Below the pieces are notes generated by a model that had not been told where the DNA came from, made no database searches, and saw nothing but the letters and a program-made list of their open reading frames with translations. Made by a program: the position numbers and the translations under genes. Positions 2,862 through 7,178 of a DNA stretch of 23,475 bases are shown piece by piece; the first letter of the stretch is position 1, and each line of letters opens with the position of its first letter. This stretch comes from Promethearchaeota archaeon (GTDB taxonomy: Archaea > Asgardarchaeota > Lokiarchaeia > Sigyniarchaeales > SOKP01): assembly GCA_018238625.1 (NCBI GenBank), contig JABCSY010000062.1, forward strand, positions 1 through 23,475, read 5' to 3'.

Positions 2862-3095
2862 AATCATCCTTGTGATAATAACTTCTAAACCTTATCAACT
2901 CAAATAGATCGTAGATAAAATGAATTGCCTTTATAAATAATTAATATTTATAGAAAAGTTTTATAAAAGAAAAAGAGATTTACAATATATAAGGTCGTAA
3001 TAATTAAGAAAAAATCTTATCAAAAACTTGAGATCCGAATAGAAAGCTTAAAAAAAGTTATATTTTAAATTTAAATATAGAAAAGGTGGGGAAAA

Positions 3096-3758
3096 GTTAG
3101 CATAGATTGGGAGCGTGCTGAATTGGCACCGCAAAAAAACCAGAAGGTAGAGGGTAGAATCTTATTAGATTTACGCGCAAAAATTAATGAATTAGAAAGA
3201 GACTTAGTTAAGTACAAAGAAGATCTAAGAAACAAAATAGAAGTTTTAAAAGAAACTCAAAATAAATTAAGTGGTAGAGAAAAAAGCCTTGTCAAAATTA
3301 GTGAAAAGTTTTCATCAGCTAAAAAGAATTTAGACGGTGTTTCTGAGGATAAATTAAATGTTGATATAGAATTAACAAGATTAAAGCCAAAATATGACGA
3401 AATTAAAGAAAAAGCGTTAAGAGCAAACGAAAATATTGAAAGATTAGAAAGTGAATTGAGGTTTTCGACAGAAAAAGTAGCCGAGATGGAACAAAAATTA
3501 ATATTCAAAGAAAAAGAGATAAAAAACAATAAAAACGATATGGAAAAAAGAAAAAACGAAATTGATGTCTTAAACGGAAAATTCAAAGAGAATCGAGAAG
3601 AAACAAAGGAATTGATTGATAAAATAAAATCTCTTGAAACTCAGCTTTCAGAAGTTAAAACATCACCTATGATTTTGGAACGAATAAGAGACGTAATGAT
3701 GCATAAAGGCTTTCTTGCCGATAGGGAACTCGATCTTATATTTAAGGAATTTGAGTAA
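3096..3758 (+). CDS. Coiled-coil protein, paralog A (start extended upstream of the TTG at 3123 in the ORF track)
   Basis: Long K/E-rich heptad region. In-frame upstream codons encode V-S-I-D-W-E-R-A-E, which align without gaps to the N-terminus of paralog B. C-terminal motif MMHKGFLADREL. Confidence 0.8.
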   Translation, partial: VSIDWERAELAPQKNQKVEGRILLDLRAKINELERDLVKYKEDLRNKIEVLKETQNKLSGREKSLVKISEKFSSAKKNLDGVSEDKLNVDIELTRLKPKYDEIKEKALRANENIERLESELRFSTEKVAEMEQKLIFKEKEIKNNKNDMEKRKNEIDVLNGKFKENREETKELIDKIKSLETQLSEVKTSPMILERIRDVMMHKGFLADRELDLIFKEFE

Positions 3759-3913
3759 TATAAGGATATTTTATAAATTTTTTATCTTGAAATCTATTTT
3801 TAAACTTGAATATTTACGATTAAAATATTAACTTGAAAAGATTAAATATCTTGTAGCATAAAAATATTAATATAAAAAATACAATAAAAAAAATTCGTAA
3901 TGGTGTGAGAAGT

Positions 3914-4666
3914 ATTTCGGTAGATTGGTCAAAAGCAACCGAGAAACCTGATAAAAAGCAAGCCGTAGAGGGGCGTTTTTTATTAGATCTTAGGTCAAAA
4001 ATTGATGATTTGGAACAAAAACTAAAACAAAAGGAACAAAAAATAGAGAAGTTATCTAAGGAACTAAATGGTACCAAGGAAAAATTATCAGAAAAAGAAA
4101 AAGATTTAACTGAAAAAATTCAAGAATTATCGAAGACTAAAATAGAAATAACCGCTATAAAAGAAGATTTAACCAATTATGAAGCAGAAATTAATAATTT
4201 AAAATCAAACAAATCTAGCTTAGAGCAGAATTTAGAAGCTGATAACGAAAAAATAAGAGATTTCGAAAGCAAATTAGATAATACCTTGAAGAAATTAGAG
4301 GAGTTAGAACCAAAAGTCGGGGGTCTAAAGGAAGACTACGAACAAAAAGAAAGAGAGCTCGAGGGCGTTAAAAAAGATCTACAGCAAACAATTTCAGATA
4401 AATATATTGAGATTGAAAGTTTGAAAAACGAATTGACTGACCAGATTAACACTAAGGAAAGTCAAATAATAGACGCCAAAAATGACCTTGAGGCAAAAAA
4501 CAAAGAAATTGAGGCGATTGAACTTAAAATTAATTCTTTAGAGGATTATATTGAAGAATCAAAAGGGGCGCCCCAAGTTATAGAAGGAATCAAGGAACTT
4601 ATGTCCCACAAAGGCTTTTTGAGTGACAAAGAGTTAGAAGACATCATCGACAAACATCAAGAATAA
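3914..4666 (+). CDS. Coiled-coil protein, paralog B (start either GTG 3905 or ATT 3914)
   Basis: Heptad-rich ORF with N-terminal motif SVDWSKA...VEGRFLLDLRSKI and C-terminal motif MSHKGFLSDKEL, both shared with paralog A. Confidence 0.8.
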   Translation: MSVDWSKATEKPDKKQAVEGRFLLDLRSKIDDLEQKLKQKEQKIEKLSKELNGTKEKLSEKEKDLTEKIQELSKTKIEITAIKEDLTNYEAEINNLKSNKSSLEQNLEADNEKIRDFESKLDNTLKKLEELEPKVGGLKEDYEQKERELEGVKKDLQQTISDKYIEIESLKNELTDQINTKESQIIDAKNDLEAKNKEIEAIELKINSLEDYIEESKGAPQVIEGIKELMSHKGFLSDKELEDIIDKHQE

Positions 4667-4787: not shown

Positions 4788-6071
4788 ATGGTCTACTTAG
4801 TCTTATTACAAACGTTATCGGCAGAAGAATTTTACATCTTATTTTTTAAAATTATCGTATCGTTTTTCTGTGGTTTTCTTATTGGGATCGAGCGCACAAG
4901 AGTAAGCGCGCAATATGGTGCCCGGGACCACATCTTTTTTTCTATGATTTCTACATCTTTAATTATATTACACGACAAATTTCTCCCCGTATCAGAGGGT
5001 TTTACGTTAATTATAATGTTTTTTGGAGGGATGATAGTTTTTCTATTGATCGGAAGCGTTTATAGATTGTTTCGCGAAAACGATCCCGGATATACTACTA
5101 CACTATCAATGATATTAGCTATGGTCGTTGGAACGATATGTTATTACAATGAATCCTTTGCCATTGTCATTTCCGTAATATTTTTAATTATTCTTTCCAC
5201 GAAAAAGCAATTTTATAAAATACGAAAATTAAAAGATGTTGAATGGACAGGAACAGTTGAATTTATAGCAATCGTAGTCTTGCTTTACATTTTGATTCCA
5301 GACAATTTTCTGATTTTTGAAATTAATGTTAAACCAATAGTATTAGTTTTCATTATAATTTTAGCTGTAAAATATTTTAGTTACTTTATACTAAGGAGCA
5401 CAAGTGAGAAAAATCTATACTATATTTCTTTTTTAGGAGGTTTTGCTCATAGTGAAGCTACAACCGTTGAATTAGCTGAAGCTGGCGCGTCATCCTCAGC
5501 TGTTTGGCTAGTAATTCAGACTATGTTAATTAGAATGATAATCGTTTTAATGATTACTCCTACTTTACTATTCTATGCCTTGTTCCCAATTCTAATCACA
5601 TCTTTTATTGGATTAATCGGGTCATTTTTAATATTAAGAAAAAAAGAAACTCAATTAACTTTAGATAAAATCAAAAACCCTCTCTCAATTAAAGGCGCTT
5701 TAATCTTTTCGGGAACATATCTAATTGGTTTAATAATATCGATCGTTTTGAGTTTTTTTGAAATAAATATTTTTGCTTATTATATTATTGTGTTTGTGAT
5801 CGGTTTTCTTTCCGGTGGTGCGTCCTCTCTGTTTGTAGCAACAGCATTTTATAAATCCTTAATTAACGAAGGGAATGCATTAGTGATGTTAAGCATTGGT
5901 TTATCGGCTGCGATAATAAATAAGATCTTCTATTCAACTCGAGCATTGAAGGAAGATAAAAATAAAAAAGTATATGTCATTCATCTCGTCTTTTACATCG
6001 TCATAACTATTTTTCTGTTAATCACGATGACCTTTTTAACGATAATTACATCCAATTTATCAATCTTCTGA
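4788..6071 (+). CDS. MgtC/SapB family membrane protein with C-terminal DUF4010-like domain
   Basis: GFLIGIER...GARDH and PGYTT match the MgtC signature (GxxIGxER...GxRT, GxTT). LGGFAHSEATT and NPLSIKGALIF match DUF4010-type motifs. SD GAGGAG at 4771-4776. Confidence 0.8.
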   Translation: MVYLVLLQTLSAEEFYILFFKIIVSFFCGFLIGIERTRVSAQYGARDHIFFSMISTSLIILHDKFLPVSEGFTLIIMFFGGMIVFLLIGSVYRLFRENDPGYTTTLSMILAMVVGTICYYNESFAIVISVIFLIILSTKKQFYKIRKLKDVEWTGTVEFIAIVVLLYILIPDNFLIFEINVKPIVLVFIIILAVKYFSYFILRSTSEKNLYYISFLGGFAHSEATTVELAEAGASSSAVWLVIQTMLIRMIIVLMITPTLLFYALFPILITSFIGLIGSFLILRKKETQLTLDKIKNPLSIKGALIFSGTYLIGLIISIVLSFFEINIFAYYIIVFVIGFLSGGASSLFVATAFYKSLINEGNALVMLSIGLSAAIINKIFYSTRALKEDKNKKVYVIHLVFYIVITIFLLITMTFLTIITSNLSIF

Positions 6072-6101
6072 AGATAAAGAAAATAATCAAATGATTAGAT
6101 A

Positions 6102-7178
6102 ATGGTTAAACTCAGTTGGGAAAATAAGGCAAATATTTCTGAAAATATTAAGGATTTAAAAATAAGATATTTCAATTATTTTAAACCTGTGGATGTGGGA
6201 ATTGGAGATTTAAAAGGCAATAATTGGAAAAATTTGCTATTTTGGGGGGAAAACCTCAATGTGCTTCATTATTTAACGAATAATTTCTCTGGAAAGATCG
6301 ATTTAATTTATGTTGATCCCCCCTTTTTCTCAGGAACGGATTACAGAATCAAAATCGAGGAAGATGGGAATCAATACGATTCGATTGCATATTTTGATCA
6401 TTGGGGTAAAGATCTTGATTCTTACTTACAAATGCTTCGCGACAGGATTGTTTTATTTAGGGAATTGTTGTCAATAAATGGGTTGCTGTTTATCCACTTA
6501 GATTGGCACGCAAGTCATTACGTTCGAGTGTTGTTAGATGAAATTTTCGGTGCAAACCGATTTGTCAACAGTATAGTTTGGTATTATTACAATAAATATT
6601 CGGCTGGGAAGAAGAGCTTGCCGAGGGCTCACGATGACATCCTAGTTTATTCTAAATCCGCTAACTATACTTTCAATGAGCTCAGAATCCGTCGTAAAAA
6701 ACCAATAAAGCAGCTAAAAAGAGTGATGGTTGATGGCGTTTTAAAAAATGCTAAAGACGAGAAGGGGCACGTTATTTATAGGGTTGTAAAAGATAAAAAA
6801 ATGGACGATGTGTGGAAAATACCATGCATGCAACCTGCTTCTAAGGAGTGGACAGGGTTTCCTACGCAAAAGCACCACGATTTGCTCGAACGAATAATTA
6901 AAATTGGAAGCAACGAAGGCGATCTAGTAGCTGACTTTTTTTGTGGTTCCGGAACAACTTTATTAGTTGCCGATAAATTAAATAGAAGATGGATCGGAAG
7001 CGACATATCCGAATACTCAATTTATCTAACTCGCAAGAGATTACTTAATTATAGAAAAAATATAATTGACCCAAAGATTGAGCCTTTTGAAATTTACGCT
7101 CATTTTGATGAACAAAAAAAGAATTTAATATCATCTGGTTTTTTTGAAAAAGATTTGAAAATAAAAAGAAAAAAATAG
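6102..7178 (+). CDS. Site-specific amino-methylating DNA methyltransferase (m6A/m4C), beta class, Type III Mod-like
   Basis: Motif IV IYVDPPF precedes motif I DFFCGSGTT. Also FPTQK, the GENL motif, and an N-terminal LSWENK similar to the Mod LxWxxK. Confidence 0.92.
   Translation: MVKLSWENKANISENIKDLKIRYFNYFKPVDVGIGDLKGNNWKNLLFWGENLNVLHYLTNNFSGKIDLIYVDPPFFSGTDYRIKIEEDGNQYDSIAYFDHWGKDLDSYLQMLRDRIVLFRELLSINGLLFIHLDWHASHYVRVLLDEIFGANRFVNSIVWYYYNKYSAGKKSLPRAHDDILVYSKSANYTFNELRIRRKKPIKQLKRVMVDGVLKNAKDEKGHVIYRVVKDKKMDDVWKIPCMQPASKEWTGFPTQKHHDLLERIIKIGSNEGDLVADFFCGSGTTLLVADKLNRRWIGSDISEYSIYLTRKRLLNYRKNIIDPKIEPFEIYAHFDEQKKNLISSGFFEKDLKIKRKK

Follow-up and report, generated by a model that had tools for sequence, protein, structure and literature searches.

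Initiation at codons other than AUG, GUG and UUG has been described in several settings. Bacteria use AUU as a start in infC and pcnB, and rare AUU, AUA and AUC starts are listed in translation table 11. In eukaryotes the near-cognate codons CUG, GUG, ACG, AUU and AUA mostly serve upstream open reading frames and N-terminal extensions, and eIF1 autoregulates its own synthesis through a poor start context. Mitochondria initiate at AUA and AUU, for which they depend on an altered genetic code and on modification of C34 in tRNA-Met. In this work we have investigated a stretch of 23,475 nucleotides from a Promethearchaeota archaeon (contig JABCSY010000062.1, hereafter the window, which is contig C193 of genome G000) and in it two tandem coiled-coil genes, paralogs A and B, in which the conserved N-terminal motif follows GTT and ATT, respectively. 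We consider it probable, from comparison of sequences, that A and B are real genes of the expressed type with near-cognate starts led by a Shine-Dalgarno (SD) element, and that they are one instance of a relaxed start rule which applies throughout the genus; initiation at these codons would occur with methionine. For another Asgard lineage, the Kariarchaeaceae, a single “rare ATT start codon” with a ribosome-binding site was proposed for the tubulin AtubA (PMC13394414), and a second paper takes another predicted start for the Kariarchaeaceae tubulin gene (PMC13371889). The start proposed in the first of these papers resembles ours in that ATT lies 5' of the start as annotated, follows a plausible ribosome-binding site at the right distance and restores a conserved N-terminus. 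AtubA, however, is one gene, whereas the pattern described here is both genome-wide and genus-wide, includes ATA, ATC, ACG, CTG and GTT as well and has statistical support. A full-text literature search, supplements aside, returned the single AtubA start, but no description of a genome-wide or genus-wide pattern in Asgard archaea and no report of an AUU-started archaeal aIF1 under autoregulation.

How does the present case compare with the systems outside the archaea? As with the bacterial near-cognate starts, SD pairing would position the 30S subunit, the initiator tRNA would read a single-mismatch codon and a fidelity factor would discriminate. The bacterial cases, however, are a handful of usually regulatory genes, whereas here about one third of the GGTG-led genes are concerned, the housekeeping ribosomal protein uS4 included, and the machinery is archaeal aIF1/aIF2 instead of IF3. 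With eukaryotes it shares the set of near-cognate codons and the gatekeeper eIF1/aIF1, and an aIF1 gene with ATT as its only available start recalls the feedback of eIF1 and infC; unlike in eukaryotes there is neither scanning nor a Kozak context, positioning falls to SD pairing, and the near-cognate codon would be the sole start of housekeeping proteins. As in mitochondria, AUN codons would be accepted as starts by Met-tRNA, but ATA and ATT stay internal Ile codons here and the initiator-like anticodon arm is standard.

After the TAG which closes its frame, paralog A reads AAA AGG TGG GGA AAA GTT AGC ATA GAT TGG and so on to the TTG at 3123, in translation K R W G K V S I D W E R A E L, where V is encoded by GTT 3096 and the final L by TTG 3123. 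A first-pass annotation of this DNA had stated that there is no ATG, GTG or TTG between the TAG and S-I-D-W, that a GGTG element lies 7 nt before GTT in A and 8 nt before ATT in B, and that the 21-residue stretches V-SIDWERAELAPQKNQKVEGR of A and I-SVDWSKATEKPDKKQAVEGR of B align without gaps; all this holds, and in A no such codon stands in frame anywhere before 3123. A third paralog, C, on contig C93 of G000, begins with ATG TCG ATA GAC TGG and has AGTGA 7 nt upstream. The N-terminus of the family is thus M-S-I-D-W, with ATG in C where A has GTT and B has ATT. The conserved N-terminal region comprises about 30 residues, and a second family motif, G-F-L-[ST]-D-[KR]-E-L, lies at the C-terminus.

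Could TTG 3123 simply be the start of A and GTG 3905 that of B, with the upstream similarity of the paralogs being residual untranslated sequence? Both codons are in frame and were returned by the program which listed the open reading frames (ORFs), GTG 3905 is kept in the five closest genomes, and most genes in this genome need no SD. We nevertheless regard the use of canonical starts only as improbable. TTG 3123 is lost in three orthologues, and in two of them, G008 and G020, no canonical codon follows for 60 more codons. The nine codons 5' of 3123 encode the most conserved motif of the family, which is translated in the ATG-started paralog C, and the first 30 codons of A show a pairwise dN/dS of 0.07-0.32 among G000, G008 and G020, that is, purifying selection. 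The other ATT-bearing B orthologues have GTA in place of GTG 3905 and possess no other start. Over its full length, A shows a dN/dS of 0.21-0.31 in the same three genomes. The intact frame of 220 codons and these low values argue that paralog A is kept up and translated although it has no canonical start.

One base fewer in GGGGAAAA of A would recreate the layout of B, in which GTG is followed by three codons and S-[IV]-D-W, and an assembly error or a frameshift therefore needed to be excluded first. Such an explanation may take several forms: a one-base error or a real frameshift offsets GTG 3086, the frame is regained by programmed frameshifting or transcriptional slippage, or A has decayed to a pseudogene. 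Its attraction is that deletion of this base yields GTG, three codons and S-I-D-W exactly as in B, but we find it scarcely credible. Contigs of three DNA runs from three studies span 3073-3113 and 3893-3933 and have no substitution or indel at 3085-3098 or 3900-3916, and GGGGAAAA of A is GGGCGGAA in four relatives. In G008, G020, G028 and G016 the leader GGTGGGCGGAA precedes GTT; it is of equal length, contains no homopolymer and gives the SD-embedded GTG the same frame offset. A GTT with identical spacing in five genomes (G000 and these four) is no assembly error, and an error or indel at GGGGAAAA was ruled out on the evidence of the run contigs and the four relatives. Across the orthologues the distance from the SD-embedded GTG to the start position is 10 nt in some and 11 nt in others, so that no common frameshift model fits, and the intact A frame, with a dN/dS of 0.2-0.3, does not resemble that of a pseudogene. 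Programmed frameshifting or transcriptional slippage from GTG 3086 was also rejected, there being no conserved slippery site and no constant frame relation.

An alignment of the orthologous 5' regions had been proposed beforehand as a check on the near-cognate starts, and its outcome agreed with the prediction. Genome G000 comprises 4.29 Mb in 201 contigs, with an estimated contamination of 7.6%. We searched 61 relatives, 36 of them of the same genus, and read the SD-proximal start codon in 77 orthologues, which fall into three clades; L011, L023, L076 and 14 out-of-genus loci (L081-L094) did not match the motif pattern and were not counted. The tandem A-B pair and the C paralog occur throughout the genus, and the M-S-[IV]-D-W position carries ATG, TTG, GTG, ATT, ATA, CTG or GTT behind a conserved SD. 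In the A clade (25 genomes) the codons are ATT 9, TTG 7, GTT 5, ATA 2, ATG 1 and GTG 1; in the B clade (31 genomes) ATT 19, ATT with an extra ACG codon 2, TTG 8 and ATG 2; and in the C clade (21 genomes) ATG 7, ATT 6, GTG 5, TTG 2 and CTG 1. A canonical codon (ATG, TTG or GTG) thus occupies the start position in 33 of the 77. When a canonical codon was sought between the upstream in-frame stop and the start position, none was in frame in 16/16 non-canonical orthologues of A, 15/21 of B and 4/7 of C, and the other non-canonical orthologues had a GTG embedded in the SD.

The near-identical leader GGTGGGCGGAA is followed by ATG in G014, by ATA in G013 and by GTT in the four genomes named above, while G024 has ATT behind GGTGGGCGAAA, one base off GGTGGGCGGAA. 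Of two sister B orthologues, that of G035 has ATG behind GGTGA and that of G001 has ATT. In three A orthologues (G027, G002 and G031) a single codon separates the stop from ATT (GGTGAG TAA AAA ATT). Codons of the motif vary synonymously across the clades, and the GGTG/GTGA element keeps a constant distance to the start codon in a variable reading frame; in paralog A, GGTG is kept in all orthologues whatever its frame. Fixed distance and shifting frame mean that the element behaves as an SD and not as a coding GTG, and its conservation argues for a leader. In the C clade, the CTG of L056 (G033:C65) stands behind AAAGGTGAAACAAA, two codons after an in-frame stop; a canonical codon is lacking, and CTG is thereby one more near-cognate type in the family.

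Is this habit confined to one gene family? We scanned G000 without a gene caller, using 3123 stop-to-stop frames of at least 150 codons, and considered as head codons those in frame within the first 40 codons which precede any ATG, GTG or TTG by 6 codons or more. The 3' end of the 16S rRNA, GGATCACCTCCT, matches a peak of GGTG at -13..-10 before the first ATG (65/2032), and the SD starts of A (-11) and B (-12) are within the spacing of canonical genes. GGTG at the same distance precedes 22/909 ATT, 15/706 ATA, 7/255 ATC and 6/71 ACG head codons, as against 1/1386 AAA, 1/870 AAT, 0/850 TTT, 0/534 TAT and 0/844 TTA control codons. Taken together, near-cognates have the element in 50/1941 cases and other sense codons in 18/10603 (odds ratio 15.5, Fisher p ~1e-26). 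With 98 canonical SD-led sites beside these 50, roughly a third of the GGTG-led genes in G000 would start with AUU, AUA, AUC or ACG. The 50 sites are spread over 41 contigs and resemble the 98 canonical ones in SD flanks, spacing (11-12) and operon context. An in-frame stop lies at most 2 codons upstream in 30/50 near-cognate and 68/98 canonical sites, and at 43/50 of the former the first canonical codon follows 10 or more codons later. Translational coupling or reinitiation was rejected as the cause, since an upstream ORF ends at 13/50 near-cognate as against 39/98 canonical sites.

Protein domains point the same way. Among 20 of the 50 sites analysed with Pfam, the first canonical codon falls inside the domain match in 12 (AFOR_N twice, IF-2B, Gtr1_RagA, Ras twice, GCHY-1, AhpC-TSA, HIT, DUF1326, DeoC and ATP-synt_D); the domain begins at residue 5 with the first canonical codon at 46 in a Ras protein, at 15 and 66 in IF-2B, and at 3 and 24 in AFOR_N. 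As the clearest control, the gene for uS4 (G000:C200:5377, plus strand, L042; orthologues L095-L140) has ATC before the conserved G-D-P-R-R and a stop one codon upstream. Among 24 genus genomes the uS4 start is ATC in 12, ATA in 2 and ATG in 10, whereas 20 genomes from other families within the class have ATG 19 times and TTG once; three more outside loci did not match the search pattern, and 7 of 30 genus genomes gave no hit. These results fit the suggestion of the first-pass annotation that start selection is relaxed in this lineage; its other reading, translational control of the individual genes, may still apply. How far does the habit extend? Samples of 800 kb from outside genomes showed no near-cognate spacing peak (GGTG before 2/292 codons in G044 and 3/333 in G060), although a few ATT starts in the G044 and G060 samples are individually plausible, and the ratio of near-cognate to canonical sites, 50:98 in G000 vs 2:17 in G044, is suggestive only (Fisher p = 0.06). 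On this limited sampling, the strong near-cognate habit appears to be specific to the genus. SD-proximal ATT or ATA codons were also seen 5' of the first canonical codon in the genes for actin, two Ras-family GTPases, a Gtr1/RagA-like GTPase and TFB, at sites in G000 such as C47:16712-, C138:27527+, C183:3905-, C109:50253+ and C36:40176-.

The initiation machinery itself contains such a gene. For the genus-type aIF1/SUI1 (G000:C22:35797-36012, minus strand, L034; L181-L190), ATT is the sole plausible start in 11/11 genus genomes examined: the leader reads TGA AAA A[AG]G AGT ATT AAA ... ATT TGT, and no ATG, GTG or TTG occurs from the in-frame TGA to the C-x2-C-SFPK-x-LCIC Zn-knuckle. Outside the genus, aIF1 has TTG, ATG or GTG in 7/10 cases and only ATA or ATT in three (G056, G059 and G060). 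Perhaps the AUU-started aIF1 is subject to feedback of the infC/eIF1 type. The link between the start of aIF1 and the genome-wide pattern is not a simple one, as G060 has an aIF1 with only ATA/ATT and yet no near-cognate SD peak in its 800-kb sample. Absence of aIF1 was rejected as an explanation: G000 has two SUI1 genes and SUI1 was found in 49/61 genomes searched, the misses occurring in complete and incomplete genomes alike and therefore being no evidence of absence. The second SUI1 gene of G000 (C60:41226-41441, minus strand, L033) scores higher in Pfam (75 vs 56 bits) and may be a paralog or foreign, given the contamination estimate of this genome. Its leader before the knuckle is GAG GTG AAA ACA GAA ATT, in which the SD contains an in-frame GTG and is followed by ATT at the optimal distance.

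The aIF1 of S. solfataricus is reported, in the portions of two papers which deal with start selection, to discriminate against AUU complexes (PMC4705826, PMC6237735). As the Sulfolobus factor rejects AUU, the relaxed starts here probably go back to an alteration of aIF1, of aIF2 or of the P site. An unusual initiator tRNA was considered and rejected, the initiator-like anticodon arm being canonical (GGG-CUCAUAA-CCC). Aragorn found 13-19 tRNAs in G000 and no tRNA-Met(CAT); this low yield is explained by the long insertions which many tRNA genes carry. Many of these genes measure 95-138 nt, with internal insertions which are likely introns, some of them outside the anticodon loop (for example C111:334-471, C22:37153-37281 and C22(+) at about 10404), and the initiator-like gene on C22 seems to be interrupted after the T-loop.

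We propose the following model. The GGUG(A/G) of the mRNA would pair with UCACC of the 16S rRNA 3' end, and this pairing would leave 11-12 nt from the first G of GGUG to the P site. Met-tRNA of the initiator type would then be accepted on AUU, AUA, AUC or ACG through two of three base pairs, and in paralog A on GUU through a G-U pair and one Watson-Crick pair. The B lineage would use AUU, and the A lineage of G000 and its four closest relatives GUU, which may have derived from AUG and subsequently from AUA/AUU. We infer that A and B, with their weaker starts, are expressed at a lower level than paralog C with its ATG. More speculatively, AUU, AUA, AUC and ACG may be routine starts, with CUG and GUU tolerated; negative feedback on an AUU-initiated aIF1 could keep stringency low and allow near-cognates to spread, and paralogs C, B and A, with ATG, ATT and GTT, could form a graded, aIF1-sensitive set.

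Several observations weigh against near-cognate starts in A and B, first of all that the whole case for them is comparative, and that related genomes are not independent, so that fewer evolutionary events lie behind the orthologue counts than these suggest. For paralog A, GTT is the sole candidate of its kind in the genome (1/216 head GTTs) and GUU mismatches AUG at two positions. Could the ATA at 3102, two codons past GTT, be the true start of A instead? It is a single-mismatch near-cognate, and ATA has 15 other SD-led sites in the genome, whereas GTT has no other; it is the better codon, though its spacing is poor. A GGTG at -22..-17 precedes only 3/2032 first ATGs, compared with 65 at -13..-10, and GTT, at the optimal spacing, takes the very place which ATG, ATA or ATT holds after the same leader in orthologues. 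We therefore favour GTT 3096 as the start of A and consider ATA 3102 rather unlikely, with a little room left for other options.

In paralog B of G000 and its four closest relatives a GTG (3905) lies in frame three codons 5' of ATT, so that a canonical start, lacking in A, is available here; as the first-pass annotation had noted, it overlaps the GGTG element, of which it takes in the last G. A start at this codon would give M R S I S V D W. Most genes have no GGTG (the peak comprises only 65 of the 2032 first ATGs), and the lack of an SD consequently does not disqualify GTG 3905. In the B gene of G016, GGTG has become GGCG. One RNA-library contig covers the B start; with 13 differences in 157 nt it belongs to a relative, and it may reflect DNA carry-over. 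It may be that in G000 B is initiated mainly at GTG 3905, with the ancestral ATT bypassed and A still non-canonical, a mixed case to which we give real weight without favouring it. The change from GTA to GTG is specific to the five-genome subclade, and the decay of the SD in G016, a member of this subclade, is what one would expect once it was no longer needed. On the other hand, GTG 3905 has no SD at the right distance upstream, and in three C orthologues GCGTGA is the sole upstream element for ATT, the GTG being out of frame behind TGA. The RNA-library contig, which begins 28 nt before ATT 3914, reaches at least 19 nt 5' of GTG, a weak indication against a leaderless start there. In RNA run X17 nothing was seen to cover the A start region, which tells nothing either way. 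On balance, the ancestral, SD-led ATT 3914 is mildly preferred as the start of B in G000 over the derived GTG 3905. The features of the two genes are collected in the table below. The mini-ORF at the SD of B reads ATG AAG GTG TAA in most of the other B orthologues with ATT; G011 has ATA in this mini-ORF, and it is absent in G024 and G016.

Table. Positions within the window of the features of paralogs A and B
Feature	Position	Strand	Remarks
In-frame TAG, closes the frame 5' of paralog A	3078..3080	+	
GGTG, Shine-Dalgarno element of paralog A	3085..3088	+	first G 11 nt before GTT; complementary to 16S 3' end ...GGATCACCTCCT
Out-of-frame GTG (GTG GGG AAA AGT TAG)	3086..3088	+	TAG after 4 codons; unusable as start
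GTT, most likely initiation codon of paralog A	3096..3098	+	ATG, ATA or ATT in orthologues
Paralog A coding region, 220 codons and stop	3096..3758	+	coiled-coil; N- and C-terminal motifs conserved
ATA (Ile of S-I-D-W), alternative near-cognate start of A	3102..3104	+	17 nt from GGTG start, a rarely used spacing
TTG, first canonical codon in A and ORF-lister start	3123..3125	+	TTA in G008, G020, G016
Mini-ORF ATG GTG TGA overlapping the SD of B	3900..3908	+	
GGTG, Shine-Dalgarno element of paralog B	3902..3905	+	first G 12 nt before ATT
In-frame GTG, alternative canonical start of B and ORF-lister start	3905..3907	+	five closest genomes only
ATT, conserved start position of B	3914..3916	+	19/31 B orthologues; 2 more with a further codon between ATT and the motif
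Paralog B coding region, 250 codons and stop	3914..4666	+	

If starts of this kind are common, gene finders restricted to ATG, GTG and TTG would truncate or mis-start many proteins of the lineage. The genes affected would include those for actin, Ras/Rag-type GTPases, TFB, uS4 and aIF1, and thus “eukaryotic signature” proteins which people express and whose structures they solve. The genus would also offer a natural archaeal system in which to study the control of start-codon stringency by aIF1, aIF2 and the ribosome, with a bearing on differences in stringency along the line to eukaryotes, and its AUU-started aIF1 would be an archaeal counterpart of infC/eIF1 autoregulation.

As to the proteins themselves, all Pfam matches of A and B (Fez1, Filament, Crescentin rod, SMC-like) were below the gathering thresholds and a PDB sequence search gave only coiled-coil noise (E >= 8e-4). 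No initiation-factor domain was found in either by Pfam, which does not suggest genes for a factor of the infC type. Paralog C (L002, C93 1507-2430) has 307 aa, the same N-terminal motif, a coiled coil rich in Ser, Thr and Asn, and a Cys-rich, zinc-ribbon-like tail (C-P-M-C-G ... C-K-K-C-G). The downstream neighbours at 4788-7178 in the window, an MgtC/DUF4010 membrane protein and an N6/N4 DNA methylase, suggest no functional link to the pair; a further neighbour is fucose-isomerase-like, and neither Pfam, PDB nor the neighbours gave a specific function for A or B. Homologues are named generically or as “hypothetical protein [Promethearchaeota archaeon]”, and these names, together with the actin and Ras/Rag GTPases in the genome, indicate its Asgard character. 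Public calls of the family (P0004-P0014) are often truncated N-terminally, in that they start inside or after the motif or are 50-100 residues short. What is apparently one gene on a 60-kb contig from two sources is given as 229 aa (P0013, LSVEGS...) and as 222 aa (P0014, MLDLRS...), both without S-I-D-W, and other public calls of the family have 146-200 aa.

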